From assembly GCA_031551455.1 (NCBI GenBank), contig JAVBNP010000006.1, forward strand, positions 6,749 through 70,748: DNA of 64,000 bases. Reading direction: 5' to 3'. The stretch's first letter is position 1; each line of letters opens with the position of its first letter. Source of the stretch: Bacteroidales bacterium. Its GTDB lineage: Bacteria > Bacteroidota > Bacteroidia > Bacteroidales > UBA4181. Below are positions 1,125-19,089 of the stretch, piece after piece. The position numbers were made by a program, and so were the translations under genes. The notes under the pieces were generated by a model, which saw only the letters and a program-made list of their open reading frames with translations, did no database searches and was not told where the DNA came from.

Positions 1125-2405
1125 TTACTTGTTTCCTCTCGCTTTCTCCAAAACCTTTGCAACGGCTTTCAATTGTTCCATTTGCGAAGGATTGATTTGT
1201 CCGTGGGCATTTACCTGTACGTCGAAACACATCACGCCTTCTTTTTCGAAAACTTTTTCGGCCCAATCAACAAGATCTTCCGTTTTGTGTTTCGTCCCCG
1301 GCCTTCCCCAATAGTCGCCTAAAAAGGTGAAATGAAACCATTGTATTCCCGGAGCAATCCACCGTCCGGAAGGTAATTCGTTGATGTCGTTTCGTTCACC
1401 GGCGGCGTAATCGTCGTAAGGCGAGTCGTATTGTATTGCGGCAACACCATAATTGTAACTGACAATGCTCTGCGGATTACCGGCTTTGGCCGCCAATGTA
1501 TGCGTGCTGATATTATGTTCCAAACTCATGTCCGAACGAGTTTGAATAATCCCTCCCCGATCCCGATACATACCGTCAAACCACCATCCCGAAAGATCCT
1601 TTCCGTAACGCAACGACCATTCTTTGATGACCGATTCCCAAAGAGCTTGAGTGTATTGTGACGTGGGAGAATCCTTTCCATACGTGTATTTGAACTTTTC
1701 GCAAACGGCTTCGTTACTGATGGGCGGATTACCGGGCAGATAAAACATGAACCGAATACCTTTCGCCTTCAATGCCTTAATCAAGTCGGCAGGCAGGTCG
1801 CGTTTGCTGCAAAGATCTCCCGGATTTACGCCCGTTATTTGATCATAAGCCGAGTTGGGAGAATTATAATACCCGTCATTCTGTCCGAGTGCCCAAAGGA
1901 CGTACTTTACGCCCGACGCTTCACATAAATCGGCAAACAAGTTGACATCAAATCCTTTGACAATCGCGTTCCACGCTTCCGAGCCGCCTTCTTTGATATA
2001 TACCCCTTTAAGATAATGCACCATCAAACCCAATCCCGCATCTTTAAACCAATCCGTATTCGGATTTCCCTTGTCGGCGATCGGTTTTTTGCTCACAATT
2101 TCCGCCGAAGGATAATCTTTTCCTGTCAAAGATGCTTTGATTTCGCATTTCAGATACTTCCCTGCATAATCGGTTAACAAAACGATTTCGGGCGTGTGAA
2201 TTCCCGGCAAAACCGTCCAATTATCGGAACCGGGATCGCCGATATACCATTGAAACGTTGTTTCTGTTCCGGGTACGGTATTAAATTTAACCCGCACGGT
2301 GTTTTTGGCATACAAGTCACCTTCAAATGAAAGATTGGTAACAACGGGGTTTTGACAAGAAACTGCAATTACCGAAAGAATGATATACAAACAAAGTTTT
2401 TTCAT
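1125..2405 (-). CDS. Lipoprotein with GH29 (alpha-L-fucosidase)-like catalytic-domain layout; putative glycoside hydrolase
   Basis: SpII-type signal (MKKLCLYIILSVIAVSC). An N-terminal beta-sandwich-like segment is followed by DWFKDAGLGLMVHYL ... SGVKYVLWALGQNDGYYNSPNS ... RDLPADLIKALKAKGIRFMFYLP. This mirrors the WF.AKFGIF.HW / AGAKY.V.T.KHHDGF / RD.V.EL...G layout of GH29. By-eye similarity only. Confidence 0.45.
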   Translation of the reverse strand: MKKLCLYIILSVIAVSCQNPVVTNLSFEGDLYAKNTVRVKFNTVPGTETTFQWYIGDPGSDNWTVLPGIHTPEIVLLTDYAGKYLKCEIKASLTGKDYPSAEIVSKKPIADKGNPNTDWFKDAGLGLMVHYLKGVYIKEGGSEAWNAIVKGFDVNLFADLCEASGVKYVLWALGQNDGYYNSPNSAYDQITGVNPGDLCSKRDLPADLIKALKAKGIRFMFYLPGNPPISNEAVCEKFKYTYGKDSPTSQYTQALWESVIKEWSLRYGKDLSGWWFDGMYRDRGGIIQTRSDMSLEHNISTHTLAAKAGNPQSIVSYNYGVAAIQYDSPYDDYAAGERNDINELPSGRWIAPGIQWFHFTFLGDYWGRPGTKHKTEDLVDWAEKVFEKEGVMCFDVQVNAHGQINPSQMEQLKAVAKVLEKARGNK

Positions 2406-2484
2406 AACGTATGAAGTATTAAAATATTAAAATAACAAATTTATAATCAACTGTTTATTTGATTAATTTATCGCGAATATTTCA

Positions 2485-3765
2485 TTACTTTTCCGACTTC
2501 AAAAGGTTACCGGATAACATGATTTTTCCCAAGTATATATTTCTTTTCGGCAAATCTTTGCGAATGTCGTCTGACAATTCCGCTGCCGGCGGATCGGTTT
2601 GTTTGTCGAAAGGAGTGGGATCAACCGTCAATGTTACCGTATGTTCTCCGTCTTCGAGTTCGGGCAACCAAAAATAGTGATAACGGTAATACGTGCAATA
2701 TTTGTCGAAACGACGAATCGGTATCGGGGATTGATTGTCAATGCGTACGATAACACTACCCGTTCCGGGACCGATCACATCAAAAAAACCGATGCGCGTA
2801 CCTTTGAAACGGACGGTTATTTGATCATCGGCTCCGGTTCCGCAAAAAAGTTCCGGTAATTCGGCTTTGAAACGATCGTATATTTCGTTGCCGGTGCCAA
2901 GTTGCTGCCAATTACCCGACATCTTTGCTTTCGTTACGGAATACCATCCGTATTTTTCGTAATTGTTTGGACTCAACGGTTTTCCCGGTTTTTTCCGAAC
3001 GTGTTGTTTCATTCCCGACATGATGTCAAACGCGTCCGTTAGCGCTTGCGTGTATATCTCATGTCCTTCTCGCGTGGGATGTACTCCATCGTATGAAAAA
3101 ATAATCTTATCGCCGTAATCCTTGCCCTTTTCTCCTTTTACGATCGTTTTTCCGGCAGCAACCGATTTTGCCAACGCAAAATCCAACGCGATGGAAGGTA
3201 TCTTATAATAATCCGCCACTCGTTCCATGACGCGCGCCGAATACCAATGTCGGCCTTGCAGGTTGGTTGCCGTCATCCTATCGGTGGCGGTGTACAAGAA
3301 ACAAATATCGGTTTTGGAATTTCGGTCCAGAATTTGACGCACAATCCCTTCCATGGCATCAATGATTTTTACGGAATCAATGCCGTCATCGTTCACGGCA
3401 TATTCCACGAACACCAAATCGGGCTGGTGTGATAAAACATCATCTTCCGTGCGTACCGCACCGAGATCGGAACATGTACCGCCGATGGCAGCATTTATCA
3501 TGGTAAAAGGAACACCGGGATACATTTCCCGAAACCGTTTTTCGGTCTGCACCCGATAACCGTATCCCGCATTGGTGATGCTTCCGCCGAAATAAACGAC
3601 GGTTACGGGCTTTTTCTCTTTAACTTTGGTAAAGAAATTCGGTAATCCGTCGCGTACGGTCAATGTATTTTCGGGAACGGATTGTGCCAATGAAGTTATC
3701 GAGAAACAGCCGATCAACAAACATGTCGATAATGCGGCAATAATGCAAATATTAATTTTTTTCAT
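2485..3765 (-). CDS. SGNH/GDSL-family hydrolase (putative carbohydrate esterase) with C-terminal beta-rich domain
   Basis: Start moved to the internal MKKINICIIAALSTCLLIGC signal peptide; ATG complement at 3763-3765. Block I VVYFGGSITNAGYG, block III AIGGT and block V-like DGVHPT are present, plus FVEYAVNDD. Confidence 0.7.
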   Translation of the reverse strand: MKKINICIIAALSTCLLIGCFSITSLAQSVPENTLTVRDGLPNFFTKVKEKKPVTVVYFGGSITNAGYGYRVQTEKRFREMYPGVPFTMINAAIGGTCSDLGAVRTEDDVLSHQPDLVFVEYAVNDDGIDSVKIIDAMEGIVRQILDRNSKTDICFLYTATDRMTATNLQGRHWYSARVMERVADYYKIPSIALDFALAKSVAAGKTIVKGEKGKDYGDKIIFSYDGVHPTREGHEIYTQALTDAFDIMSGMKQHVRKKPGKPLSPNNYEKYGWYSVTKAKMSGNWQQLGTGNEIYDRFKAELPELFCGTGADDQITVRFKGTRIGFFDVIGPGTGSVIVRIDNQSPIPIRRFDKYCTYYRYHYFWLPELEDGEHTVTLTVDPTPFDKQTDPPAAELSDDIRKDLPKRNIYLGKIMLSGNLLKSEK

Positions 3766-3937
3766 AATCGAATAAATCCGTCGTACTATTATAACGTTTA
3801 AAGGATTTGTAAAAACGGAAAATACCTTGATGTACAATATTTCAAAAGATATCGATTATCGCAATATTTGCCGTTCATGTAAAATTCGAAATCGATTTCA
3901 TCCCGGCGAAATCGATTTCGAAAATCCGAAGCCGTTG

Positions 3938-5257
3938 TCAGAACTTGAAATACTTTTCTCTGATGGGGATATTCAATAGAGCCGAAGCCGCGTTGTCGCC
4001 GATGAAGTCTTCCTTAACGGGGTCCCAGCTTAATTTCGATCCGATTTTTACCGCAATCAAACCCAGTTGACACATGGATATGGTACGATGTGCGGTTTCG
4101 AGCGGTTCTGCCGATTGTCTTTTTTCTTTGATTGCCAAAAGGAAATCGTCCTTATCGCTCAAATCGGATTTGAATGATTTTTCGTTACTCCCCAAAGGAG
4201 TACTTAATATCGCGTCGGACGAAGCCGAAAGTTTGTCGGGATATTCTATTTCCACCCAGCCGTTCGTGCCTTCAAAACGCACATAAGGACGTTCTATTTT
4301 GAAAAATACTTCCACGCCGTCGGCAAATTTGTAACGAATGTCAAAACGATTCATCGTATTCCACAAACCTTTGTCGAAATCGCCGTTTCCTTCTATTTCT
4401 ATAGGGCCCGTGTACTCGCTGTTATTTCCCCATTGCACGATTCCGACCAAATGAGCTCCCCAGTTGGAAATCATACCATTGCAATAATCGCTCACGCGCA
4501 TCCAACCCGGACGGCCGTATTTTTTTTGCGCATGTACGCGTTTTTCGGTGTAAGGCGCTTCCCAAGCAGGTCCCAACCAAAAATCATAATTCAACTCTTT
4601 GGGAACGGGCATCGTGAGTTGCGGCGGCAGCGGATCGCCGTTCAGTTCGGGAGGAACGGCAACATAAATTCTTTGTATTTTTCCGATACGACCGTTACGA
4701 ATGACCTCGACGAATTGCTGCATCGCCGGGATCGTACGGAATTCGCTGTCGTTTCGCGTAATTACTTTCGATTTTTTGACTGCTTCCACCAATTTGCGGC
4801 CGTGCTCGATGCAGGTCGAAATAGGTTTTTCCAACGAGACGTGTTTTCCCGCGCGAACGGCGTCAATGGCCATCGGCACATGCCAATGGTCGGGCAACGA
4901 CAACATGACGGCATCGATGCTTTTATCCTGCAACAATTTCCGATAGTCGGTGTATGCTTTGCAACCCTTATACGTTTTGCCCGATTCTTCGGTATAAAAA
5001 TCATTTACTTGTTTTTGGGCGGCGTCCAATCTCCAAGTATCGATATCGCAAACGGCAACCACTTGCCCGTGCGGCGACTTCAACAATTGAGGAATATTCG
5101 GATTGACCATTTGACGACCGCATCCGATGCAGGCAACCGTAATCCGATTACTCGGCGCCGTTTTACCGAAAACCGTTGAGGGAACAACCGTCGGCATTAA
5201 AAAAGTTCCCGCGGCAAGCGCAGCGCTTTTTTTCAAAAATTCTCTTCGTTCATTCAT
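3938..5257 (-). CDS. Tat-exported Gfo/Idh/MocA-family NAD(P)-dependent oxidoreductase (glycoside 3-dehydrogenase-like or GH109-like)
   Basis: Start set at MNERREFLKKSAALAAGTF, which carries a twin-arginine RREFLK motif. Rossmann start ITVACIGCGRQ. The DAVMLSLPDHWH and EKP motifs are typical of Gfo/Idh/MocA. Confidence 0.8.
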   Translation of the reverse strand: MNERREFLKKSAALAAGTFLMPTVVPSTVFGKTAPSNRITVACIGCGRQMVNPNIPQLLKSPHGQVVAVCDIDTWRLDAAQKQVNDFYTEESGKTYKGCKAYTDYRKLLQDKSIDAVMLSLPDHWHVPMAIDAVRAGKHVSLEKPISTCIEHGRKLVEAVKKSKVITRNDSEFRTIPAMQQFVEVIRNGRIGKIQRIYVAVPPELNGDPLPPQLTMPVPKELNYDFWLGPAWEAPYTEKRVHAQKKYGRPGWMRVSDYCNGMISNWGAHLVGIVQWGNNSEYTGPIEIEGNGDFDKGLWNTMNRFDIRYKFADGVEVFFKIERPYVRFEGTNGWVEIEYPDKLSASSDAILSTPLGSNEKSFKSDLSDKDDFLLAIKEKRQSAEPLETAHRTISMCQLGLIAVKIGSKLSWDPVKEDFIGDNAASALLNIPIREKYFKF

Positions 5258-5326
5258 GATATTATGTTTTGTATTATTCGATAAAATTCCCTTTCCTTTG
5301 TTTTCCCGAAGCCGGTTCAACAACAC

Positions 5327-5372
5327 GACTCCCCCTCTCCATGTGGGAGAAGGGGTCGGGGGGAGAGGCGCT
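5327..5372. repeat. G/C-rich REP-like hairpin between two co-directional genes
   Basis: gactccccctctcc-atgtg-ggagaaggggtcggggggagagg. CCCCTCTCC pairs with GGAGAAGGGG (one bulge), or alternatively CTCCCCC with GGGGGAG. Confidence 0.4.
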
Positions 5373-5375
5373 CAT

Positions 5376-6539
5376 TTACGCATATTCATTCCAAGTTTCC
5401 CACATGGCCCAGAAATTTTCGGGCGGAACATCTTCTTGCACATTATGTACAGGCGCAAAAACAAAACCGCCGCCCGGCGCCATGATGTCGATGATGCGTC
5501 GCACCTCGTCGCGTACCTGTTCCGGTGTACCGTTATTCAATGTCGATTGCGTATCCACGCCGCCGCCCCAGAATGTGATATCTTTTCCGAAATCTTTCTT
5601 CAAACCTTTCAATTCCATATTTTTGGCGGTAAACTGCACCGGATTCAGAATATCCACGCCGGCATCTATCAAATCGGGAATAATGGGACGAATGGAACCG
5701 CAGCAATGCAGGAACACTTTTGCATGCGGCAACCTTTTTTTCACGTGCGTGAATAATGTTTTCATACGCGGAATGACGGTTGCACGAAGCAGATCCGGTT
5801 CCAAAATGGTTGCATCCTGCGAACCCAAATCATCGCATTCCGATATTACTTGTATTTTATGTTCGTTTCCCGTTTTTTTCGCCCAATCGATAATGGCGTC
5901 CCAATAATTGATTTTGTCTTCGAGAATAATATCGAATAAAGCATCCACGCCTTCGGGATCGATCATCGTGTCCAAAAACCAATTTTCATAACCGCGGATA
6001 CGTAACGAATTTTCGGTAAATCCTGCCGTATTGCGGTCGGCAATGCAACAAGAATCGCCTACTTGAAGCACTTGCCAATCCATGCATTTCTCCAAATCCG
6101 CAATGTACGACTTCCAATCGGGTCGCGGCAACTTATGTAAATTACCCGAGATGGTTTCACAACCATCCAACGGCGAACCCACCAAGTTGAAATAAATATC
6201 TTTCCCTTCCTGATACGTCCATTTGCAACCGTAAAAATCGTACACGGTGGTGATGTTCCCCTCGACGATTTTATTCTTGTCGTATTCGAGTATGCGCGTG
6301 GCGCCGATACGACGTGTGTCCGATTTCAACTTCACCAGATTCTCTTCGATCGGGGTGATGATTTGTTGTATCGGATCGACCATTTCGGGATTGTAATCGA
6401 TAGACAATCCTTTGAATTTCATCGCTTTTTGGTAAGCATTTTTAGTGATGGCCGTCACCGTGGTACCCGAAAGATCGTAAGGAACTCTGTCCGGTTCCTC
6501 ATGATTCAGGGCTTTTGCAATTCTTTCTTTTCCGTTCAT
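5376..6539 (-). CDS. Uroporphyrinogen-decarboxylase (URO-D) fold protein, MtaA/CmuA-like methyltransferase family, divergent member (not HemE)
   Basis: 387 aa. N-terminus KERIAKALNHEEPDRVPYDL. LHCCGSI motif and C-terminal GGGFVFAPVHNVQ. It lacks the HemE PVW.MRQAGR signature. Confidence 0.65.
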   Translation of the reverse strand: MNGKERIAKALNHEEPDRVPYDLSGTTVTAITKNAYQKAMKFKGLSIDYNPEMVDPIQQIITPIEENLVKLKSDTRRIGATRILEYDKNKIVEGNITTVYDFYGCKWTYQEGKDIYFNLVGSPLDGCETISGNLHKLPRPDWKSYIADLEKCMDWQVLQVGDSCCIADRNTAGFTENSLRIRGYENWFLDTMIDPEGVDALFDIILEDKINYWDAIIDWAKKTGNEHKIQVISECDDLGSQDATILEPDLLRATVIPRMKTLFTHVKKRLPHAKVFLHCCGSIRPIIPDLIDAGVDILNPVQFTAKNMELKGLKKDFGKDITFWGGGVDTQSTLNNGTPEQVRDEVRRIIDIMAPGGGFVFAPVHNVQEDVPPENFWAMWETWNEYA

Positions 6540-6594
6540 GATATATTTATATTTTGATGATGATGTGTTTCTTAATTATCGAATAAAAAATCGT

Positions 6595-7851
6595 TTATAT
6601 TTTGATTGGTTTGATCTTCGGAAGCAACAATTGTATAACGGTTAAGGCTATGAAATAACCGAAAGCCGCTACCGTAAAAGGTATGATGTAGCCGTCCGTA
6701 CCCGATCCTTGTAAAGCTGCGCCGATCAACAACGGGGCTATGAACCCGCCGACCGCTCCCGCAAATCCGCCCAATCCGGAAACGGATGCTGTAACTTTTT
6801 TCGGAAATACGTCGCTCATCAAGCTGAAAATATTGGCCGACCAACCGCAGTGTCCGCCTGCCGCAACGGCAATCAAGGCAACCGCGGTCCATACGCCTTC
6901 CGCGTGCGGAACGTACATTACGGGAAGAGCACATATCGCGCAAGCCAACATGCTCAATTTACGTCCTCTGTTCAAGTTATTCCCTTGTTTCAACAGCTTG
7001 GACGACAACCATCCCAAAAGAATTCCGCCACCCCACGATACCGAGTATACAGTAAAAAAAGGCAATCCTATTTGCGTTAGTTCCAACCCAAATTTGGCTT
7101 TTAGGAATTTTGCGCCCCAGAACAGATAAAACCACCAAATGGGATCGGCCATGAATTTTCCGACGAGAATGGCCCACGTGGCACGATAACTTAACAGTTT
7201 TGAGTAAGCAACCTTTTCCGTCGTCGATTCTTCCTTGTCGCTTAAAATGTAATCCAATTCGGCTTGGTTTACTTTTTTGCTTTGTTCGGGCACGGAATAA
7301 AATTTCCACCAAAGAATGATCCAGATGATTGCGATCGGAAAAGTCCAAACGAATGCAACACGCCAAGTCCCGAACGTCGCTACCAACAAAGGGATGATCA
7401 GCGGGGCCGTCATGCTGCCGACATTAGCGCCGCCGTTGAAAATACTCACCGCAAGCGCCCGTTCTTTTTTCGGAAACCATTGGGCTACCGTTTTATTTGC
7501 CGCGGGAAAACTGCCCGATTGTCCGATGGAAAGAGCAAACCGACTTACCGCCATTCCGATCCATGACGAAACCAGAGCATGCGCCAGTTGTGCAATACTC
7601 CATAACCCCATCGAAACGGCGTAACCTTTTTTCGTTCCCATACGGTCGACGATCCGACCCATGATGAGGAAACAGATGGCATAACCGATCATAAAAGCGG
7701 AAGTGACATATCCGTATTGTTTTTCCGTCCATTCTATCGGCAGGTACGGCGCCATGATCCCCAAAGCGCCACGGTCAATGTACAGCAATGTGGTGGCTAT
7801 GAATAGTAAGGAGAGGATGAACCACCTGATTTTGGTTTTCTTTTGTTCCAT
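6595..7851 (-). CDS. MFS transporter, ACS/ExuT (hexuronate or sugar-acid)-like
   Basis: 418 aa with about 12 hydrophobic helices. The N-terminal RWFILSLLFIATTLLYIDRGALGIMAP pattern resembles anion:cation symporter family members. Confidence 0.75.
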   Translation of the reverse strand: MEQKKTKIRWFILSLLFIATTLLYIDRGALGIMAPYLPIEWTEKQYGYVTSAFMIGYAICFLIMGRIVDRMGTKKGYAVSMGLWSIAQLAHALVSSWIGMAVSRFALSIGQSGSFPAANKTVAQWFPKKERALAVSIFNGGANVGSMTAPLIIPLLVATFGTWRVAFVWTFPIAIIWIILWWKFYSVPEQSKKVNQAELDYILSDKEESTTEKVAYSKLLSYRATWAILVGKFMADPIWWFYLFWGAKFLKAKFGLELTQIGLPFFTVYSVSWGGGILLGWLSSKLLKQGNNLNRGRKLSMLACAICALPVMYVPHAEGVWTAVALIAVAAGGHCGWSANIFSLMSDVFPKKVTASVSGLGGFAGAVGGFIAPLLIGAALQGSGTDGYIIPFTVAAFGYFIALTVIQLLLPKIKPIKI

Positions 7852-7975
7852 TATTGGTTGTTTTTATGATTTTGTCGTATTAATAAATAACGATTAAAGG
7901 ATTAGTATTTATTATTGATGATGCATAAAACAGACTGTTTATTCCTAATTTAAAAGAACATCGATCGGGTATTCG

Positions 7976-8830
7976 TTATTTCAAAGCTGTAACAACGCCT
8001 TTAAAATAACCCGCCGATTCGGCCACGATTCTCACCGTATCTTCTTTATTTTCGGTACCCGTTTCCATGCTGCATGCTCCGGCGTAACCTATTTTTTTCA
8101 AGGTACGTACCAGCAGCGGAATATCGATAACTCCTCGTCCGATAATGCAAATTTTTTCGCTTTTCCCGGCGCCCGTAGCATCGTTCAAATGCATATCGAA
8201 CAAACGGTCGTGATAATTTTCAATGTCAGCAATCGGATTAAGTCCGTCACGTACGGTATGTCCGATATCCAGGCATAAACCGATGCGCGGATCGAGGTCT
8301 TTGATATATTTCATCACGTCGGTAGCATTGGGGTATAAATCTATGTCGGGTCCGTGGTTATGGATAGCATACCGGAAATCGTATTCCTTAACCTTTTTTT
8401 CCACATACGGCAACATTTCATGATTCGGAACGCCCACGATCAGTTTTACCCCAACTCGACGGGCATAATCGAAAGCGGCATCCGTTTCGGCTTCCGTTTT
8501 CATGTAGATGGGACCGGCCGCATAACCCGTGACGTTTTTGGCGGCAAGTTTGGCTTTAAAAGCGGCTATTTCTTCATCGGTACTTGTCATTGGCAAGTGA
8601 AAATCTTTGATGCACAAATAATGCAAGTCCAATTGCTGCAGAACTTCCAACGTTTCGTCGATGTCGAATTTTGCAAACGTATATCCGGCAACGGACAAAT
8701 TAAACTTTGCATCCGGATCTTTTTGCGGGGCGGAGTTGGTACATGAATTTTGCCCCACAAGAAGCGGAACGGCACTTGCGGCGAGCAATCCCGCGCCGGC
8801 TTTTTTTACGAAATTTCTTCTCGTGGTCAT
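7976..8830 (-). CDS. Tat-exported sugar-phosphate isomerase/epimerase (xylose isomerase-like TIM barrel) family protein
   Basis: MTTRRNFVKKAGAGLLAASAV carries an RRNFVK twin-arginine motif. The AIHNHG and CLDIGH metal-site-like motifs are characteristic of AP_endonuc_2 TIM barrels. Confidence 0.8.
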   Translation of the reverse strand: MTTRRNFVKKAGAGLLAASAVPLLVGQNSCTNSAPQKDPDAKFNLSVAGYTFAKFDIDETLEVLQQLDLHYLCIKDFHLPMTSTDEEIAAFKAKLAAKNVTGYAAGPIYMKTEAETDAAFDYARRVGVKLIVGVPNHEMLPYVEKKVKEYDFRYAIHNHGPDIDLYPNATDVMKYIKDLDPRIGLCLDIGHTVRDGLNPIADIENYHDRLFDMHLNDATGAGKSEKICIIGRGVIDIPLLVRTLKKIGYAGACSMETGTENKEDTVRIVAESAGYFKGVVTALK

Positions 8831-8851
8831 TTTAATAGTGTTTTGATATGG

Positions 8852-10039
8852 TTATCGATAAGCTTTTTTCATGATTTGAACCGTTTCGTCGAACGAAAGC
8901 GTATAACGGTCGCGCGCAAAAAGTTTTCCCATGGTATCGTATGCTTTTTGGGCTAACGAGGGGATGTCTTCCACGCGGATGCCGTAATCGGACATTTTCA
9001 AATCGTCGACGCTACAAGAACGACGCAACTTTGCCAATGCGGTCACGAAAAGTTCTCCCCGTTTTTCGGGTGCCGTGTTTTCCGTATCTTCTCCCATAGC
9101 CTTTGCGAGATCGCCGAGCAATTCCGGAATTTTATCGGCAAAGAACGAGAAAAACGAATCGGACAACATGATCAGTCCCGCGCCGTGCGGCAAATCGGGG
9201 CTTACCGCACTCAACGCATGTTCCATGGAGTGATGGGAGGTGGTGGAAGAAATCGATTCCACCAAACCCGAAAGCGTATTGGCAAAAGCTACTTGCGTGC
9301 GGGCTTCCAAGTCGTTGCCGTTCGTTACCGCGCACGGTAAATATTTTGTTACCAATTCCGCACTCTTCAAGGCATACAAATTACTGATGGGGGTCGCGGC
9401 ATTGGAAATATAACCTTCAACGGCATGAAACAATGCATCGAAACCCTGATAGGCAGTGAGTTTCGAGGGAACCGAAAGCATTAATTCGGGATCAACGATC
9501 GACAAGGTCGGGAAGGTATCCGGACGACCCAAGCCGATTTTTTCGTTGGTGTCTTCTCTGGTAATCACCGTCCACGGATCGGCTTCGGTACCGGTGCCGG
9601 CGGTTGTGGTAATGGCTATGATCGGCAAGGCTTTGTTCGGAGCGGTTTTCTTTCCGCCACTGCCCGCCGCGATATAATCCCAATAATCACCCGGATTGTG
9701 AACCATCAAAGCGATGCTTTTGGCCGAATCGATCGAGCTGCCTCCTCCGAGGCCGATCACGAAATCGCAGTTTTCTTTGCGCGCCAGTTCGGCGCCTTCG
9801 GCAACGTGCGGCAATATCGGATTTGCCAGTATTTTATCGAAAACGACGGCTTCAGTTTGGTTGTTTTCTTTCAACAACGCCAGTACTCGATCCAAATAAC
9901 CGTTCGCTTTCATGGATTTTCCGGCCGATGTAACCACAAGGGCCTTTTTTCCGGGTAAAGGAATTTTACCTAATTCGTTCAATTTCCCGGGACCGAACAA
10001 AATTTTCGTCGGGATGAAATAAGTAAACTCGTTGTTCAT
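8852..10039 (-). CDS. Iron-containing (group III) alcohol dehydrogenase, FucO/lactaldehyde-reductase-like
   Basis: Start set at MNNEFTYFIPTKILFGPGKL; ATG complement at 10037-10039. GLGGGSSIDSAKSIA glycine-rich NAD motif and conserved His-rich metal region (HHSMEHALS). Confidence 0.85.
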   Translation of the reverse strand: MNNEFTYFIPTKILFGPGKLNELGKIPLPGKKALVVTSAGKSMKANGYLDRVLALLKENNQTEAVVFDKILANPILPHVAEGAELARKENCDFVIGLGGGSSIDSAKSIALMVHNPGDYWDYIAAGSGGKKTAPNKALPIIAITTTAGTGTEADPWTVITREDTNEKIGLGRPDTFPTLSIVDPELMLSVPSKLTAYQGFDALFHAVEGYISNAATPISNLYALKSAELVTKYLPCAVTNGNDLEARTQVAFANTLSGLVESISSTTSHHSMEHALSAVSPDLPHGAGLIMLSDSFFSFFADKIPELLGDLAKAMGEDTENTAPEKRGELFVTALAKLRRSCSVDDLKMSDYGIRVEDIPSLAQKAYDTMGKLFARDRYTLSFDETVQIMKKAYR

Positions 10040-10192
10040 GGTGATAAAATTTTTATTACGCGTTACCGTGCTTTTCGTTGTTATACGCAACTTGACGACA
10101 TACGGTCGTCGAAAAAGCGAACCATCCGTCGGAATATGCTTGCGACATACGCCGACGGATGCGGTTCGAAACAAAATCGGATTTCCGAAATA

Positions 10193-11206
10193 TTAACGGG
10201 TCCGATTAAAATCGTTCAATGCTTTGTAAAACGCATCGATGTTTTCGAAGCTTACATGCGGCGGAACGTCGCATCCCGACGAAAGAATATAATTTTTGTA
10301 CTCCTTGGTGCGTTCCAGCAATTCGTAAACCGTTTTGTACAACTGGTCGGGAGTCATCATTTTGATCATACCCACGGGATCGACGTTACCCATGACAAGC
10401 AGGTTGCCGGGGCAAGCTTTCAACGCTTCGACCATATTGATGGCATTTCCGAAATGGTACGCATTTGCTCCCGTATAAAGCATGGCGTCGGTACATTGTC
10501 CCGTATTGCCGCAATTATGCAATACCACCATGAAACTGTCGTCTTGTACGACGGCAATCAATGTTTTCAGATATTCGGAAGAAAATTCCTTACAATCGTC
10601 GTTAGATAACAAGCCGGCAGCCGGTTCCGCAATCACCACACCGCTGCAACCGACACGTTTCAGCTCTTTACAATAAGCCGTGATAAATTGAGTACATTTA
10701 TCCAACAACATTTTGATGGCATCGGGCTCGATGTAACATGCCGTCATGATTTCGGACATGTCGAATAAACGTCCGGCCAACGAGAACGGACCAATAACAC
10801 CGGCTAACGTGGGTCTTCCCTTGATTTGCTCCACCACGAGCTTATTCGCTTTCAAATATTCGGGAACACGACCGGCGGTGAGGGCGGGAACTTTCAGTTT
10901 TTCTATTTCTTCGGCTGTGCTTACCAAACGACCCAAAATGTGGGGCATGTCGTTATCGGGAAATTCTATTTTGCAACCGAAAGCTTCCGCTTCCACGGTC
11001 AAATCCATGATTACCGTTGTTGCGGCCGACGGATATTTGTCGCTCAAGGCTTTGATGGCTTGTGCATGTACTTCTCCGCTTTTCACGGCATCGACCACCC
11101 GTTTGCCGATCATTTCGATACCCGGATGCGTCATGATCGGAATGGCGCTGCGTTTTTTATCCGCAACGATTTGCTCCATCCATTTTTTCATATTCATTGT
11201 TTCCAT
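10193..11206 (-). CDS. MtaA/MtbA/CmuA-type methylcobamide methyltransferase (URO-D fold)
   Basis: 337 aa and immediately downstream of the corrinoid protein gene. It carries VVLHNCGN (H-x-C) and ILSSGCDVPP, the zinc-ligand pattern of MtaA-type enzymes. No HemE RQAGR motif. Confidence 0.75.
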   Translation of the reverse strand: METMNMKKWMEQIVADKKRSAIPIMTHPGIEMIGKRVVDAVKSGEVHAQAIKALSDKYPSAATTVIMDLTVEAEAFGCKIEFPDNDMPHILGRLVSTAEEIEKLKVPALTAGRVPEYLKANKLVVEQIKGRPTLAGVIGPFSLAGRLFDMSEIMTACYIEPDAIKMLLDKCTQFITAYCKELKRVGCSGVVIAEPAAGLLSNDDCKEFSSEYLKTLIAVVQDDSFMVVLHNCGNTGQCTDAMLYTGANAYHFGNAINMVEALKACPGNLLVMGNVDPVGMIKMMTPDQLYKTVYELLERTKEYKNYILSSGCDVPPHVSFENIDAFYKALNDFNRTR

Positions 11207-11232
11207 CTTCTGTTCTTTTTAAAAGGTTGCGA

Positions 11233-11922
11233 TTAAGCGGTCAAACGATCCAAAATATCGACCAATGCCTGAGGTTCGGACGAATAATAATCCGCGCCGA
11301 TTTTCTTGGCGAATTCGTTATTTAACGGAGCTCCGCCGATACAGGTAACAGCTTTCGGGAACTCGGCTTTGATCGCTTTGTTGATTTTTTCCATGTTCAC
11401 CATGGTAGTGGTAAGAAGAGCCGACATGCCGACAAAGGCGTCGGGATTCTCTTTGATGGCGGCAATGAACTTTTCCGCCGAAACGTCCACACCGAGATCG
11501 ATTACTTCGTAACCGTTGCCTTCAACGATCATGCTCACCAAATTTTTTCCGATATCGTGCAAATCGCCTTCTACCGTGCCGATGATGAATTTTCCTTTAC
11601 GTTTTACCGATCCGTCGTTGAAGAATTTTTTCAAGTGGGCCATGGCTCCGCTCATGGCTTTGGCGCTCATCAACACTTGGGGCACGAAAACCTTATTTTC
11701 TCTGAACTTTACGCCCACTTTGCCCATACCTTCAATCAATCCGTGCGTAAGAATTTCGCCGGGACTAACGCCTTCGTTCAACGCTTGCACCGTAAGTTCG
11801 TCGGCGCCGGGTTGACCTTTCATGTCGGGGGGATAAGGAGAAGTTTGGTTGATCTTTCCGAATTCCACGCATTTCGCAATTTGTTCCAAAATACTACTCA
11901 TAGTTCCAAAATTTAAATTCAA
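11233..11922 (-). CDS. Corrinoid (cobalamin)-binding methyltransferase partner protein (MtaC/MtbC/MtvC-like)
   Basis: N-terminal helical cap domain followed by the B12-binding signature GDLHDIGKN (DxHxxG), MSALLTT (SxL) and IGGAPL (GG). Confidence 0.85.
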   Translation of the reverse strand: MNLNFGTMSSILEQIAKCVEFGKINQTSPYPPDMKGQPGADELTVQALNEGVSPGEILTHGLIEGMGKVGVKFRENKVFVPQVLMSAKAMSGAMAHLKKFFNDGSVKRKGKFIIGTVEGDLHDIGKNLVSMIVEGNGYEVIDLGVDVSAEKFIAAIKENPDAFVGMSALLTTTMVNMEKINKAIKAEFPKAVTCIGGAPLNNEFAKKIGADYYSSEPQALVDILDRLTA

Positions 11923-11925
11923 TAT

Positions 11926-12675
11926 TTATAATTCTTTTATTTTAATGTTTTTATATGACACTTTGTCGCCATGATCCTGTAACAGGATATAGCCTTCGGC
12001 AACTTCGCCGTATCCCGCTTTATCTTTGAATTTGGATTTTTGTACCAACGCCTTGAATTCGTCGCTGCCCAATACATAACTCAGCATTAATTCGCCGTTT
12101 AACCAATGTTCCACATGTCTGTCTTTGCTGACGATGCGACCACTGTTCCATTCGCCCGTGGGGTTGACTTTTTTTGTGTCCGGAGCTTCAATCAGTTCAT
12201 ATAAACCGCCCAATTTGCAACCTACTGGAATTTTATCCGTTTGGAAAATCGGATGTACTCCGTCGTCGATGATTTGATATTCCGGGCCGAAGACGTAAGC
12301 GCTGTTGGGATTTCCCAGCGATTCGTCCACGAAATATTTGATGCCGCTGTTGGCTCCCGGAGACATTTTGAAATCGAAAGTCAGATCGAAGTTTCCGTAT
12401 TTTTTCACGGTAACCAAGTCGCCGCCGTTAGCCGATTCTCCTCCTTTGCTTTTTTCGACGATCAAACAACCGTCTTCAACTCGCCAACCATGTTTCGGCA
12501 GACTATCGGTATAAATACGACGCCAACCGTTCATGGTTTTTCCGTCGAAAAGAAGTTGCCAACCATCTTTTTTTTCTTTTTCGGTCAATTGATTGTCTGC
12601 CGAAGGCGAAGAACCTCCGCAGGAAAAAATAAATGCGCAACAGGCAATGAGAAAAGGGATTTGGATGATTTTCAT
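11926..12675 (-). CDS. DUF1080 (3-keto-disaccharide hydrolase family) lipoprotein
   Basis: Start set at MKIIQIPFLIACCAFIFSC; ATG complement at 12673-12675. GWQLLFDGKTMNGW, GDLVTVKKYGNFDL, NSGIKY, PEYQIIDD, GGLYEL, GEWN and ILLQDHGDKVSYKNIKIKEL match the DUF1080 pattern. Confidence 0.8.
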   Translation of the reverse strand: MKIIQIPFLIACCAFIFSCGGSSPSADNQLTEKEKKDGWQLLFDGKTMNGWRRIYTDSLPKHGWRVEDGCLIVEKSKGGESANGGDLVTVKKYGNFDLTFDFKMSPGANSGIKYFVDESLGNPNSAYVFGPEYQIIDDGVHPIFQTDKIPVGCKLGGLYELIEAPDTKKVNPTGEWNSGRIVSKDRHVEHWLNGELMLSYVLGSDEFKALVQKSKFKDKAGYGEVAEGYILLQDHGDKVSYKNIKIKEL

Positions 12676-12753
12676 GAGTTTGATTTTTTCGTTAACGGTA
12701 TTAATTTCGAGATCTACTTGCAAATATAAGGTTATTGTTTTGAATATCGGCTA

Positions 12754-13773
12754 CTACAATGAATTTCTGATAATGACTTTCGTCGGAATATTTTTTTGAA
12801 CGAATTGTTGCGTTTCGACGAATTGTCGAATTTCGATTCCCATTTGTCTGAAATCGGTGCTCACGACGGTGATTCCGTTTCGGATGATTTCTTTCATCGG
12901 AGTTTCGTTATATGAGATAATCCCGATATCCGTTCCTATTTTATACCCCGCTTCCTCCGAAAATTTAACAACTTTAATTAAGTCGTTATCCGTTATTACC
13001 AAAAAAGCCGAACCTTTTCGAATCATCTCTTTTTCGACCACGGTTTCGGTTGATCTGTATATGCCTGCGGCATCGCACACTCGGGAAAACGAATCTTTGA
13101 TTTCTTCGGGAAATCCTCTTCCGGGTGGAAATATCAACCGGAAACAATCGTATTTTTTTATCCGATCGCTTGCTTGCAATAATGCGTTTATCAATTCATC
13201 ATCAAACCGTTGACTGATGTACGACGCATCGCTCAAAGCCGGTGGACGAATGATTTGCAACAATTTATGTTTGGGAATTTCGTTCAATACTTTTTTTACC
13301 GAAGGATGTTGAAAACAGGTAACAAGATACAGTCCGTATAATCCGACATGCTCCTTAATGACGGCGCGAAAAACGTCGGGATTGCAATGATGAAAAAACA
13401 AGTCCGTCCCGATATTTTTCGATTCGAGTCCCGAAATGATTTCTTTGTACAGAATTTCGTGATAGGAATCGAAAGAAGTCAAAAAAAGCATCACTTTTAA
13501 CTGACGATCAACGCCCCTGTTTCCGACGAAATAACCTATTCTGTTTTTTGATTCGATGACTCCGTTTTTTTTCAGCTCATTCAATGCTTTCACGACCGTC
13601 ATGCGGGCAAAACCGGTTTGGGCAATGATATAATTGACGGACGGCAACGGATCACCTCGTCGCAGTTTTTTTTCGGAAATCATTTGCACGATTCCGTCGA
13701 TCACTTTCGTTTGCTTTGATTTATTGCCGCCGGCATTGAAAACACCACTCATGGCTGTTCTATATTTACCCAT
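12754..13773 (-). CDS. GntR-type HTH regulator fused to a LacI/periplasmic-binding-protein-like sugar-sensing domain
   Basis: RGDPLPSVNYIIAQTGFARMTVVKALNELKKNGVIESKNRIGYFV is a GntR winged helix. The remaining roughly 250 aa alternate beta-alpha like a Peripla_BP domain. Confidence 0.75.
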   Translation of the reverse strand: MGKYRTAMSGVFNAGGNKSKQTKVIDGIVQMISEKKLRRGDPLPSVNYIIAQTGFARMTVVKALNELKKNGVIESKNRIGYFVGNRGVDRQLKVMLFLTSFDSYHEILYKEIISGLESKNIGTDLFFHHCNPDVFRAVIKEHVGLYGLYLVTCFQHPSVKKVLNEIPKHKLLQIIRPPALSDASYISQRFDDELINALLQASDRIKKYDCFRLIFPPGRGFPEEIKDSFSRVCDAAGIYRSTETVVEKEMIRKGSAFLVITDNDLIKVVKFSEEAGYKIGTDIGIISYNETPMKEIIRNGITVVSTDFRQMGIEIRQFVETQQFVQKNIPTKVIIRNSL

Positions 13774-17432: not shown

Positions 17433-17540
17433 GAAAATTGCCCCGCGGCGGCAATCCTTATCCCTACGCCGGCATCAACCGGATCAGGTTCAATGGGTAT
17501 GATCTCAGTCCGTTGCGTACGGACACCCCTAAAAGATTCG
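17433..17540 (-). promoter_or_regulatory. TPP (THI-box) riboswitch with a possible short terminator-like hairpin
   Basis: The minus strand reads AGGGGUGUCCGUACGCAACGGACUGAGAUCAUACCCAUUGAACCUGAUCCGGUUGAUGCCGGCGUAGGGAU. This matches the conserved THI-box cores (GGGGUG, CUGAGA, ACCC, ACCUGAUCNGG..AAUGCCNGCGUAGGGA). It is followed by AUUGCC-GCCGCGG-GGCAAU UUUCUU. Confidence 0.9.
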
Positions 17541-17716: not shown

Positions 17717-19078
17717 TCAATGTTCCACCACAATTTGTCGCATTTGCGGTTTATCGTTCACTCCATCGTAAATATGCAAGTAGTAGATACCATTGGACAG
17801 GCTACTTACATCAAATTCCGTTTTTCCGCCTTTGGTCGTTTTACGGCGCAGCATATTGCCTTGCCCGTCGTACAACCGAATGTCGTAAGTGAGATCGGTT
17901 TTGAGTCGCTTGGCATCAAGAGTGGCTTGCTCGAGGGATTTGGCTTGAGCAATCGCTTCCCGATCCATTTCGATGTTGAGGATGTAGGAGGCCGGGTTGG
18001 GATAAAAGGACCAAAGAAGCGAATCATTGGGAGACACTGTTACATATTTTCTGACCGTGGAAGAAACGCCACATGCATTGCGCGCGTATACTTCTACCCA
18101 CAGATTGCCGCTTGAGTTAAAAACGACATCGGCGTAATTCATCGTGCCAACGGTATAAGTTGCCACTACGCTGCTGAACGTATTATGTGTCCATGTAAAC
18201 CAATAACCCGGTCGCGACGCTGCAACTCCGTATGTGTTGCGAACTCCGGCCATCGTTGTTGCAGGCCCGTCTATTGTGGCGCCAATAACCGGCGGACTAT
18301 CCACGGACACATTGTATCTTGTCAATTCCGAACCGTTGAACCGAACGCTTACCCAACCCGGTTCGCTGGTGCCGGATCCCGTAACCGAAACGGTATTGGT
18401 CCCTTGACCGCTGGTAATTGTAATATTGGAACTACAACTCCAACTATAACCCGATTGCCAATTGGTGGCCGTGAAGGTGGCCGACAAACCGTAACAGACT
18501 TTGGAGTTGGAGGGGCCAGAGATGGTAGGGGTTCTTATATAAAACCGTAAATAAGTATTATCATAGGGTGTATCATATCGTTGATGTATCATTAAGGGTC
18601 CTTCTCCCCATTTTGACATATACCACCCTGGACGATTTATCGTTATACCCGAGTGATCATCGGGACCGGATACTGATTGGTTGCTGTAACCCCATGACAC
18701 TTTTCCCGGATGAACTTCTTGCGGAACTAGAACATAGCTGGTATCTGTCATATATATATCTTCATCTGTTGTCCTATAATAACCGATCCATCGATTTTCT
18801 CCTCCCTCTGATACATGCCAAGCAAATCCATGACAATTATAGGTCCGGGTTGAGCTTATGTTAAAAATATCTGTTATGATAATCGCATTAGGGTACCTCG
18901 ATTGCCAATATTGATCTGATGCCACTCTCACCGAATGACTTGTTTCTTCCCTAACATATGCTTCTACCGTATGTCCTTTAGGAGTAAGTACATCTCTTCT
19001 TGTATCTCCTGCTATAAGTTTGTTAATACAAGCAAAATTTGACAATGATAATATGGTTAATAGTAAATATATTTTCAT
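17717..19078 (-). CDS. Secreted protein with T9SS type A C-terminal sorting domain; N-terminal possible Cys/His (papain or NlpC/P60-like) domain and two Ig/PKD-like modules
   Basis: Start set at MKIYLLLTILSLSNFAC; ATG complement at 19076-19078. The C-terminus FYPNPASYILNIE ... SNGIYYLHIYDG ... QIVVEH matches the Por_Secre_tail pattern. YNCHGFAWH (Cys82) and DDHSGITI (His142) are spaced 60 aa apart. Confidence 0.65.
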   Translation of the reverse strand: MKIYLLLTILSLSNFACINKLIAGDTRRDVLTPKGHTVEAYVREETSHSVRVASDQYWQSRYPNAIIITDIFNISSTRTYNCHGFAWHVSEGGENRWIGYYRTTDEDIYMTDTSYVLVPQEVHPGKVSWGYSNQSVSGPDDHSGITINRPGWYMSKWGEGPLMIHQRYDTPYDNTYLRFYIRTPTISGPSNSKVCYGLSATFTATNWQSGYSWSCSSNITITSGQGTNTVSVTGSGTSEPGWVSVRFNGSELTRYNVSVDSPPVIGATIDGPATTMAGVRNTYGVAASRPGYWFTWTHNTFSSVVATYTVGTMNYADVVFNSSGNLWVEVYARNACGVSSTVRKYVTVSPNDSLLWSFYPNPASYILNIEMDREAIAQAKSLEQATLDAKRLKTDLTYDIRLYDGQGNMLRRKTTKGGKTEFDVSSLSNGIYYLHIYDGVNDKPQMRQIVVEH

Positions 19079-19089
19079 GATTGTAAAAT

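Follow-up and report, generated by a model that had tools for sequence, protein, structure and literature searches.

Methyl ethers are common on the sugars of plant, algal, fungal and bacterial glycans, for example in 4-O-methyl-glucuronate, 2-O-methyl-fucose and -xylose, 6-O-methyl-galactose, methyl-rhamnoses and methyl-mannoses, and they block the catabolism of these residues. To our knowledge, the only known route of sugar demethylation is an O2-dependent P450 reaction, hence the removal of sugar methyl ethers by anaerobes represents an open question. The P450 sugar demethylases of aerobic marine Bacteroidetes act on 6-O-methyl-D-galactose (PMC6292453). In the present study, we analyzed a locus of eleven genes at positions 1125-13773 of a 64-kb stretch of DNA from a Bacteroidales bacterium (contig JAVBNP010000006.1; the whole stretch is called the window in the following), which may solve the same problem of a methyl ether blocking sugar catabolism. 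The P450 genes are likewise situated inside glycan-utilization loci. However, P450 enzymes perform an O2-dependent hydroxylation and release formaldehyde, whereas an O2-independent methyl transfer to Co(I) is predicted for the window locus; the two systems are not homologous and are linked only by their presumed function.

The methyl-transfer part of the locus would follow the same logic as the three-component O-demethylases, i.e. MtvABC of Moorella, Odm/Vdm of Acetobacterium and Desulfitobacterium, and MtoB/MtoC/MtoA/MtoD of Methermicoccus (PMC8630106), which combine a substrate-specific methyltransferase (MT1) with a small corrinoid protein and a second methyltransferase (MT2). The Mto operon and the window locus also share a transporter of the major facilitator superfamily (MFS) class and a regulator (PMC8630106). 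In contrast to these systems, the MT2 of the window is of the MtaA type with a zinc motif and not of the pterin-binding MtrH/MeTr type, the locus is devoid of an activase, its host is a fermentative Bacteroidales and neither an acetogen nor a methanogen, and the predicted substrate is a sugar methyl ether instead of an aryl methyl ether. Moreover, the cassette is coupled to enzymes for the cleavage of glycosides in the periplasm and, among its relatives, also to polysaccharide utilization loci (PULs). The MT1 enzymes of the known three-component O-demethylases are presumably URO-D-related. The methanol system MtaB/MtaC/MtaA is also close, because Bacteroidota operons with MtaB, CobW and RACo encode orthologues of both the corrinoid protein and the MtaA-like protein found in the window. 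However, the substrate-side position is taken by MT1 and an importer in the window; a homologue of MtaB (PF12176) was not found by phmmer in the 64 kb, while it is present in the related loci L005, L037, L168 and L169.

The periplasmic part of the locus resembles the AL/BT pathway of Bacteroides thetaiotaomicron (BT2156-2160; Nasseri et al.), in which an enzyme of the Gfo/Idh/MocA family, exported by twin-arginine translocation (Tat), oxidizes C3, a secreted TIM barrel protein of the sugar-phosphate-isomerase-like type acts as 3-keto-beta-glycoside 1,2-lyase, and a DUF1080 protein serves as 3-keto-alpha-glycoside lyase and glycal hydratase, all three being periplasmic (bioRxiv 10.1101/2024.03.25.586180). 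The window encodes the same types of proteins, a Tat-exported Gfo/Idh/MocA enzyme, a DUF1080 lipoprotein and a secreted TIM barrel, again all predicted to be periplasmic. However, its TIM barrel belongs to another subfamily (best match 3lmz), and a second, cytosolic Gfo/Idh/MocA protein is missing from the block, in which the sole Gfo gene carries a Tat signal; therefore, the set would work like the AL/BT pathway but is not an orthologous copy of it. The cytosolic Gfo enzyme, which reduces the 3-keto sugar, might be replaced by an iron-containing alcohol dehydrogenase (Fe-ADH). Further differences are the regulator, which is of the GntR/periplasmic-binding-protein (PBP) type instead of DUF6377, and the coupling to a methyltransferase cassette, which is unreported for AL/BT clusters.

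At somewhat less than an even chance, we favor a catabolic role of the locus in which a sugar that is O-methylated and probably acidic is first released from a glycoside and its methyl group is subsequently removed by a three-component corrinoid methyltransferase. In the periplasm, the Tat-exported Gfo/Idh/MocA enzyme would oxidize the sugar at C3, and the DUF1080 lipoprotein together with the Tat-exported TIM barrel would split the glycosidic linkage through 1,2-elimination and hydration. The 3-keto chemistry does not depend on the anomeric configuration, so that it should also proceed on methyl-decorated residues at which ordinary glycosidases are blocked. The released methylated sugar acid or keto-sugar acid would be imported by the anion-type MFS transporter. 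We infer that the methyl transfer runs from the substrate towards the corrinoid, i.e. MT1 (387 amino acids) would use the O-methyl group to methylate the corrinoid protein in its Co(I) state, from which the MtaA-like enzyme would hand the methyl group to tetrahydrofolate (THF) or to a thiol such as homocysteine. The Fe-ADH would reduce a carbonyl of the sugar skeleton, and the product could enter standard sugar-acid catabolism of the 2-keto-3-deoxygluconate (KDG) type. The GntR/PBP regulator would sense the sugar, while a secreted SGNH esterase and a GH29-like glycosidase, probably transcribed separately, may trim the parent glycan. The features of the locus are as follows.

12754-13773, minus strand: regulator with GntR winged-helix domain and PBP-like sensor domain of the LacI type (Pfam GntR 49 bits, Peripla_BP_3 32 bits)
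11926-12675, minus strand: DUF1080 lipoprotein, predicted periplasmic 3-keto-glycoside 1,2-lyase / 3-keto-2-hydroxy-glycal hydratase (PF06439, 162 bits)
11233-11901, minus strand: corrinoid (B12-binding) protein of 222 amino acids, predicted methyl carrier (B12-binding_2 and B12-binding)
10193-11206, minus strand: MtaA-like methyltransferase of the URO-D family, 337 amino acids, predicted MT2 (methyl-corrinoid:acceptor; PF01208, 195 bits)
8852-10039, minus strand: Fe-ADH, cytoplasmic, predicted carbonyl reductase of the pathway (Fe-ADH and ADH_Fe_C)
7976-8830, minus strand: Tat-exported xylose-isomerase-like TIM barrel, predicted periplasmic 3-keto-glycoside lyase (PF01261, 71 bits; TIGR01409)
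6595-7851, minus strand: MFS transporter of the anion:cation symporter (ACS) type, predicted importer of the methylated substrate (MFS_1, 198 bits)
5376-6539, minus strand: URO-D-like protein MT1, 387 amino acids, predicted substrate:corrinoid methyltransferase (PF01208, 84 bits)
3938-5257, minus strand: Tat-exported Gfo/Idh/MocA oxidoreductase, predicted periplasmic glycoside 3-dehydrogenase (GFO_IDH_MocA and GFO_IDH_MocA_C2)
3885-3922, minus strand: terminator-like hairpin (perfect stem of 16 bp, loop of 6 nt, UUUU)
2485-3765, minus strand: secreted SGNH/GDSL hydrolase with C-terminal extension, probably a sugar O-acyl esterase (Lipase_GDSL_2, 55 bits)
1125-2405, minus strand: GH29-like lipoprotein with an extra N-terminal region of ~120 amino acids, predicted to be of exo-alpha-L-fucosidase type (Alpha_L_fucos, 67 bits)

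All eleven genes were assigned to families with Pfam and NCBIfam, and several proteins were additionally searched against PDB sequences. They form a run of minus-strand open reading frames (ORFs) without a competing long ORF on the opposite strand. When the most plausible start codons are used, the intergenic gaps from the regulator to the GH29-like gene are 78, 24, 26, 153, 21, 124, 55, 118, 172 and 79 nt. The earlier note on this DNA, which had described eleven same-strand genes with short gaps, their order and their families, was thus confirmed by the ORF listing and the profile searches. According to the translations, signal peptides are absent from both URO-D proteins, the corrinoid protein and the Fe-ADH, while lipoprotein or signal peptides are present on the DUF1080, SGNH and GH29-like proteins; the Tat motifs read RREFLK in the Gfo/Idh/MocA enzyme and RRNFVK in the TIM barrel. 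The genes for the corrinoid system are interleaved with those for periplasmic proteins in the order DUF1080, corrinoid protein, MtaA, Fe-ADH, TIM, MFS, MT1, Gfo. The previously noted combination of periplasmic deglycosylation, corrinoid methyl transfer and an MFS was supported, the deglycosylation set being predicted as non-hydrolytic, the methyl-transfer set as cytoplasmic and the MFS as anion-type, and these parts recur together in other genomes.

This recurrence was analyzed in 160 loci of 20 kb from genome and metagenome collections and 13 further loci obtained via exact-protein look-ups, onto which homologues of the window genes and recurrent neighbors were mapped. A close set comprised 39 loci with MT1 of at least ~54% identity and enough flanking sequence. 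The same anion-type MFS gene is situated directly upstream of MT1 in 30 of these 39. Other neighbors in the close set are DUF1080 (14/39), Gfo/Idh/MocA (13/39, Tat export being checked in the window and L171 only), the GntR/PBP regulator (10/39), aldo-keto reductases and sulfatases (7/39 each), as well as GH154, GH88 and a heparinase-II/III-like lyase (5/39 each). The orthologues of the regulator (315-377 bits) are found directly before MFS-MT1 in L001, L010, L011, L016, L019, L030, L089, L090, L092 and L093. A corrinoid protein gene within 8 kb of MT1 occurs in 4 of the 39 close loci, and it is directly adjacent to MT1 in 15 of 68 distant loci (22%). The nearest informative relatives resemble the window in their arrangement. 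In L082/83 (MT1 85% identical), GH154, corrinoid protein, MtaA, Met_synt_B12, Fe-ADH, MFS, MT1, lyase and GH88 follow each other, with SusC and SusD further along. L172 (MT1 79%) has the order Fe-ADH, MFS, MT1, MtaA with GH2 nearby, and L005 and L014 (MT1 ~67%) contain complete corrinoid systems within a few kb. Among more distant relatives, L037 encodes a sugar ABC transporter followed by MT1, corrinoid protein, MtaB, DUF1638, RACo and a homocysteine methyltransferase, and of the Chloroflexi relatives (MT1 36-40% identity) L075 shows the order lactonase, PfkB, 2-keto-3-deoxy-6-phosphogluconate (KDPG) aldolase, MT1, corrinoid protein. In L088, an HpcH-type aldolase adjoins MT1. The whole eleven-gene block or its exact order was not found in any of the ~170 loci. 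Conservation as a block therefore applies to the modules, namely MFS-MT1, TIM/DUF1080/Gfo, corrinoid protein-MtaA-Fe-ADH and the regulator, and not to the eleven-gene unit.

The central protein of the proposed cassette, MT1, matches the URO-D profile PF01208 only on residues 182-386, i.e. in its C-terminal half, and the NCBIfam matches of MtaA type are weak. Its sole sequence match in PDB is MtaA (4ay7, E 1e-4). The AlphaFold model (mean predicted local distance difference test, pLDDT, of 80.6) likewise gave MtaA as best Foldseek match (4ay8/4ay7, E 1e-13), followed by UROD. Each of the 151 homologues examined retains H278, C280 (as Cys or Asp), H365, D236 and D237; the first two of these residues stand opposite the H-x-C of MtaA, which we take to be part of its zinc site. 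Invariance of four arginines (R77, R82, R169, R180) is restricted to the MT1 class that is paired with the anion-type MFS; other residues take their place in the distant class, in which a sugar ABC transporter was seen in L037, the single locus checked. MT1 is predicted to be the substrate:corrinoid methyltransferase, i.e. the demethylase proper. The family is large; homologues of MT1 fall into more than 8,000 sequence clusters, and the top 120 clusters, which are at least 67% identical, come from Tannerella-labelled metagenome-assembled genomes (MAGs), Prolixibacteraceae and other Bacteroidota. From their locus tags, the nearest relatives are presumably termite-gut MAGs. 

Furthermore, a paralogue of 352 amino acids (MT1') shows 34% identity to MT1 and the same ILNPVQ and HNxQ motifs; some of the 90%-identity clusters among its homologues have over 250 members. 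MT1' is encoded in an operon with corrinoid protein, MtaA and Met_synt_B12, which has been found in the cultured human-gut isolate Parabacteroides pacaensis (L165, positions 9322-12795; OLMS01000002.1, 342903-363904) and on an ENA metagenome contig (L173, positions 7545-11071). These operons are surrounded by GH106 and GH78-like rhamnosidases, SusC/SusD and an AraC regulator, and the substrate of MT1' could be methylated rhamnose glycans or methoxylated flavonoid rhamnosides.

The corrinoid protein matches PF02310 (84 bits) and PF02607 (63.5 bits), and the signature DxHxxG...SxL...GG can be read as DLHDIG, SALL and IGGAP; its best NCBIfam models are MtgC, pyl_corrinoid and MtbC, all below cut-off. 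Orthologues of this 222-amino-acid protein occur in L082, L165, L168 and L169. The MtaA-like protein reaches 138-144 bits with NCBIfam models of the MtaA/CmuA type, again below cut-off, and in the alignment with MtaA (4ay7) its LHNCG stands opposite LHICG and its SSGCD opposite APGCG, the H-x-C and the downstream C of MtaA presumably being the three zinc ligands. Its orthologues (65-72% identity) are situated between corrinoid protein and MtaB-CobW-RACo in L005, L168 and L169, and adjoin corrinoid protein and Met_synt_B12 in L082, L165 and L173 (65-78% identity overall). Since these orthologues pair with MtaB, corrinoid protein and activase elsewhere, the MtaA-like protein would be the constant acceptor enzyme and MT1 the substrate-side enzyme. 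Judged by position, the MtaA-like protein is the MT2, with which either MtaB or an MT1-type protein alternates as substrate-side partner. Hence, the window encodes a candidate for each of the three components of a corrinoid methyl-transfer system, and these look intact at the sequence level.

Full methanol-type systems with corrinoid protein, MtaA-like protein, MtaB, CobW and RACo were also observed in three MAGs of non-acetogenic Bacteroidota, i.e. Paludibacter sp. (L168, 6611-15711), Mangrovibacterium sp. (L169, 9190-15466) and another member of the phylum (L005, 12126-17920). The system of Paludibacter adjoins GH28 and GDSL/CE2 esterases, which would fit a capture of methanol freed from pectin methyl esters. 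We know of no description of MtaB systems in Bacteroidota.

The acceptor of the methyl group may be THF, or homocysteine, as the clusters of L014 and L037 hint. As Bacteroidota are not known to make coenzyme M, they must employ another acceptor than the methanogen enzyme does. In L014 (OW818689.1, 3504-8636), a corrinoid protein, a URO-D protein of 336 amino acids, a URO-D-thioredoxin fusion of 563 amino acids, a homocysteine S-methyltransferase (PF02574) and CobW are encoded upstream of MFS-MT1, a hint at homocysteine as the final methyl acceptor in some lineages. For the MT2 enzymes of acetogens that methylate THF (MtqA, MthA), the protein family is not stated in PMC12155760. Genes for reactivation of the corrinoid are present in L005, L082, L165, L168, L169 and L173. 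Among these, a stand-alone Met_synt_B12 protein of ~235 amino acids inside the Bacteroidales corrinoid cassettes (L082, 6762-7466; L165, 11004-11723; L168, 15007-15711) suggests that the corrinoid protein is reactivated in an S-adenosylmethionine-dependent, MetH-like manner, instead of or besides the ATP-dependent RACo.

Several points weigh against corrinoid-dependent demethylation of a methylated sugar by this locus. About 85% of the close MT1 loci have no corrinoid gene within 8-10 kb, and corrinoid dependence in these cases would need a module elsewhere in the genome. Neither a RACo/RamA-type activase nor a MetH-type reactivation domain was found in the 64-kb window when it was searched by phmmer with RACo, Met_synt_B12, CobW, MtaB and homocysteine methyltransferase queries, although the activase of this genome may be encoded outside the window. 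The third zinc-ligand cysteine of MtaA is missing from MT1, which reads APGGGF where MtaA has APGCG. The Gfo/Idh/MocA enzyme finds its best NCBIfam model in the BT_2158_fam glycoside 3-dehydrogenase with 136 bits only, the equivalog cut-off being 750, so that it is a relative but no equivalog of BT_2158, and beyond 3lmz no PDB chain matched the TIM barrel better than E 1.8e-21 and none is informatively named. The glycan genes around the MT1 orthologues vary widely (mannosidases, lyases, hexosaminidase) and indicate neither a single glycan nor a single methylated sugar. Finally, aliphatic ethers are harder to demethylate than aryl ethers, the reaction being comparable to methanol activation by MtaB, and we know of no characterized corrinoid methyltransferase that acts on an aliphatic sugar methyl ether.

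Some of these observations would also suit a different role of MT1, which we regard as improbable: together with MFS and reductase it could catalyze a cofactor-independent or metal-dependent step of keto-uronate or sugar-acid catabolism, and the corrinoid protein-MtaA pair would be a remnant or belong to a separate methyl system, e.g. for methanol, that is situated close by in a few genomes. The rarity of corrinoid protein genes in the close set (4/39, versus 30 for MFS, 14 for DUF1080, 13 for Gfo/Idh/MocA and 7 for aldo-keto reductase), the loss of one of the three zinc ligands, the profile match restricted to the C-terminal half, and the independent existence of the corrinoid protein-MtaA pair with MtaB in L168 and L169 favor such a role. 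However, a corrinoid protein is found beside MT1 in at least four independent Bacteroidota loci (window, L082/83, L005, L014), an MtaA-like protein adjoins it in L172, and 22% of the distant loci have the corrinoid protein as direct neighbor of MT1; B12-binding proteins are few per Bacteroidota genome. Moreover, MT1' is the fourth gene of a tight corrinoid operon, the best sequence and structure matches of MT1 are to MtaA and not to UroD, and the H-x-C(D) plus H365 signature is universal in the family.

For the proposed periplasmic liberation of the methylated sugar, the best PDB matches of the Gfo/Idh/MocA enzyme are 8tdf (E 6e-24) and 8tdh (1e-21), with other Gfo enzymes at ~1e-14. The DUF1080 protein has a lipoprotein-type signal ending in IFSCGG and matches 8tda (E 4.5e-35), which is evidence at the family level. 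The PDB tables name 8tdf and 8tdh only as dehydrogenases and 8tda only as "Probable secreted glycosyl hydrolase"; we take the former two to be the AL3/BT3 enzymes and the latter to be the AL2/BT2 DUF1080 enzyme of the AL/BT pathway, from which the predicted function of the window DUF1080 was assigned. The TIM barrel has its best match in 3lmz, a "putative sugar isomerase" (E 6e-101), and its orthologues are situated upstream of MFS-MT1 in L008 (339 bits) and L002. Orthologues of the Gfo/Idh/MocA enzyme (742-778 bits) follow MT1 in L001, L009, L011, L017, L057 and L096. Directly downstream of MT1, TIM-DUF1080 fusions of ~520-550 amino acids are encoded in L021 (1251-2819) and, as equivalents, in L009, L011, L012, L014, L017, L019, L030, L057 and L096; in many loci the order is MT1, fusion, Gfo/Idh/MocA in the same orientation. 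The fusion of TIM and DUF1080 next to MFS-MT1 is strong evidence that both activities act in one pathway with MFS-MT1. The TIM barrel of the window itself is not orthologous to the TIM half of these fusions (BLASTP E 0.17). In the GH92/SusCD locus L171, a DUF6807 protein (PF14100; 7633-8691) is encoded between MFS-MT1 and a Gfo/Idh/MocA protein of 466 amino acids with the same C2 domain, and it is an uncharacterized partner of the periplasmic Gfo enzymes.

This neighborhood also bears on the source of the methyl group. In principle, it could be taken from an S-methyl or N-methyl organic acid, e.g. thioethers of the methylmercaptopropionate type or methylated amino-acid derivatives, mainly for the sake of methionine, and the glycoside enzymes would be unrelated. 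URO-D-type MtsA enzymes use methylthiols, a His/Cys zinc site is typical of thiol or thioether chemistry, and the importer is of the anion type; in addition, homocysteine S-methyltransferase genes occur in the L014 and L037 clusters and MetH reactivation domains in L082, L165 and L173. Nevertheless, such a donor appears very unlikely in view of the consistent tie to glycan-degrading genes and PULs and of the position of TIM-DUF1080 and Gfo/Idh/MocA immediately after MT1 in the same orientation in many genomes, while sulfur or amine catabolic genes were not seen in the related loci.

Returning to a methylated sugar as substrate, we infer its class from the company of MT1. The front-end genes beside MFS-MT1 comprise PL11 lyases in L016, GH20 in L015, GH92 and a GH63-like gene with SusC/SusD in L171, and GH38 with SusC/SusD in L084, and such varied enzymes argue for a methylated residue that is shared as a decoration by several glycans. 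In Bacteroides caccae PUL25, GH154 acts as a beta-glucuronate dehydratase that primes GH88 (PMC12269599). GH154 (PF10022), GH88 and a lyase flank MFS-MT1 in L004, L005, L082 and L084, therefore the cassette serves uronate-containing glycans there; the window has none of these genes, and the oxidative 3-keto enzymes take the front-end place. Collectively, the neighborhood with polysaccharide lyases, GH88, GH154, GH92, SusC/SusD, KDG kinase and KDPG aldolase suggests a methylated acidic sugar rather than aromatics as the probable substrate. The four class-specific arginines that travel with the anion-type MFS fit an anionic substrate. The regular reductase partner, be it Fe-ADH, aldo-keto reductase or cytosolic Gfo, points to a sugar acid with a carbonyl group, for which the products of the 3-keto route or of GH88 would be examples. 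In this regard, orthologues of the Fe-ADH (626-644 bits) are situated directly before MFS-MT1 in L082/L083 and L172, and an aldo-keto reductase is found in the corresponding position in 7 of 39 other close loci. The first proposal of the earlier note, catabolism of a methylated sugar or sugar acid, hence agrees with the neighbors of MT1 (heparinase-II/III-like lyase, PL11, GH88, GH154, GH92, GH38, sulfatases); 4-O-methyl-glucuronate is the leading single candidate, though with a low probability at best. The labels "FucO-like" and "ExuT-like" given before were correct with regard to the families and otherwise unspecific, carrying no substrate information. The Fe-ADH scores about equally against the choline dehydrogenase, lactaldehyde reductase and ErcA models, and the best model of the MFS is TIGR00893 (2A0114, D-galactonate/ACS subfamily, 230 bits); as all NCBIfam scores are far below cut-off, a specific function of either protein from curated models was rejected.

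The second proposal, which assumed methoxylated plant phenolics, is weakened by the same comparison. Here the 3-keto enzymes would deglycosylate methoxylated phenolic glycosides, the MFS would import an anionic aglycone such as ferulate, vanillate or syringate, MT1, corrinoid protein and MtaA-like enzyme would demethylate the aryl methyl ether as Mtv, Odm and Mto do, and Fe-ADH or aldo-keto reductase would handle aromatic aldehydes. We regard it as unlikely, yet it has some arguments on its side. As far as we know, the substrates of all characterized URO-D-related corrinoid MT1 enzymes are aryl methyl ethers, methylthiols or chloromethane. Glucosinolates are among the substrates of the AL/BT pathway. 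This pathway emerged from a screen for non-Koshland glycosidase activities with an alpha-thiomannosidase hit and accepts both anomers (bioRxiv 10.1101/2024.03.25.586180). The Mto system acts on aryl methyl ethers and has, as mentioned above, its own MFS transporter and regulator (PMC8630106). Transporters of the ACS type include aromatic-acid carriers, with HpaX and MhpT being among the weaker NCBIfam matches of the MFS, and the rhamnosidases (GH78, GH106) around the MT1' cassette have methoxylated flavonoid rutinosides as possible substrates. The possible termite-gut origin of the nearest relatives would fit as well. However, aromatic-ring catabolic or decarboxylase genes were found in none of the ~170 loci, in which polysaccharide lyases, GH88, GH154, GH92, sulfatases, SusC/SusD and genes of KDG-kinase/KDPG-aldolase type are the neighbors instead. 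Furthermore, the sensor of the regulator has a fold of sugar-binding type, and the class-specific invariants of MT1 consist of four arginines, a switch to hydrophobic residues not being apparent.

The size of the substrate was previously deduced from the missing SusC/SusD pair. Indeed, Pfam and protein searches detected no such pair inside or adjoining 1125-13773, so that the locus lacks the hallmark of a PUL. However, cassettes with MT1 of 75-85% identity are situated directly beside SusC/SusD and polysaccharide lyases in L082, L084 and L171, and also in L090. As orthologous cassettes exist inside PULs, the absence of SusC/SusD is no sign of a small-molecule substrate, and this part of the earlier note was not sustained.

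The two terminal genes are set apart from the cassette. The hairpin at 3885-3922 follows directly after the stop codon of the Gfo/Idh/MocA gene and folds as RNA with -22 kcal/mol (z = -2.78 versus shuffles), hence SGNH and GH29-like genes probably form a separate transcription unit. The SGNH protein, whose signal peptide begins MKKINICIIAAL in the translation, has a homologue (232 bits) in L009 as the only related locus; L168 and L172 contain unrelated GDSL genes. In the GH29-like protein, PF01120 scores 67 bits and thus above cut-off, covering only profile positions 92-342; the best PDB matches are the alpha-L-fucosidases 9pnj (8e-13) and 8z63, and no homologue at E < 1e-5 was found in any of the ~170 loci. 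Consequently, both were rejected as conserved cassette partners: an esterase and a GH29-like gene are present as noted before, yet the former is only loosely attached to the cassette and the latter is not conserved with it. One could extend this view to the entire block and regard it as a chance mosaic of several unrelated transcription units that share one strand without a common pathway, in favor of which the exact gene order being found nowhere else, the hairpin, the poor conservation of the terminal genes, and gaps of 118-153 nt that could hold internal promoters might be cited. Such a mosaic is hardly probable, because sub-blocks recur together, though in varying order, in many phylogenetically distant genomes, and because corrinoid and periplasmic genes are interleaved in the window with gaps of 21-26 nt at three junctions.

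The block is flanked by genes for an Asp-Al_Ex/TrkA-C permease, a cupin and a TonB receptor behind a thiamine pyrophosphate (TPP) riboswitch. The latter (RF00059, 69.9 bits, 17444-17540, minus strand) is situated upstream of the TonB-dependent receptor of 729 amino acids (15099-17288, minus strand), which is probably a thiamine-related outer-membrane transporter unrelated to the cluster. As Rfam at gathering thresholds gave only this riboswitch, which belongs to another gene, a control of the cluster by a B12 riboswitch was rejected. On the plus strand, a DUF5703_N protein of 842 amino acids (20410-22938) is followed by a second Gfo/Idh/MocA oxidoreductase of 453 amino acids (23164-24525); these two genes, situated a few kb away from the cluster, could form a further glycan-oxidoreductase pair. 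In addition, the window contains a very long ORF encoding 2954 amino acids (47519-56383, plus strand), and proteins sorted by type IX secretion are encoded near it at 41162-43924 (SprB/CHU_C) and 17717-19102 (Por_Secre_tail).

Full-text literature searches retrieved no published description of corrinoid-dependent demethylation in Bacteroidota or of sugars, in agreement with the view of the earlier note that such a route is undescribed in this phylum; the P450 enzyme (PMC6292453) was the sole sugar demethylase that they returned. The window locus would hence represent known methyl-transfer machinery in a new phylum, with new genomic wiring and probably a new substrate class. On a broader scale, we tentatively propose, and with more doubt than confidence, that the 387-amino-acid MT1 family and its 352-amino-acid paralogue are the first corrinoid-dependent O-demethylases for carbohydrate (aliphatic) methyl ethers, i.e. 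an oxygen-independent counterpart of the P450 enzymes, which act as exchangeable substrate-side modules while sharing a single corrinoid protein, MtaA-like enzyme and reactivation function, and which are spread through the glycan-utilization loci of anaerobic Bacteroidota and occur also in Chloroflexi, Kiritimatiellia, Lentisphaerae and Spirochaetes. The related cassette in the cultured human-gut isolate Parabacteroides pacaensis makes this reading testable now. If it is true, a very widespread, B12-dependent cassette inside glycan-degrading loci would be a candidate answer to the question how anaerobes remove sugar methyl ethers, and it would add a new substrate class for corrinoid methyltransferases. 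In guts and sediments, methyl-decorated glycans could then be used only as far as B12 is supplied, and this new B12-dependent trait of Bacteroidota would be relevant to corrinoid cross-feeding in guts. Moreover, methyl groups of sugars would feed the folate or methionine pools of non-acetogenic fermenters, which would constitute a new sink for the methyl groups of glycans.

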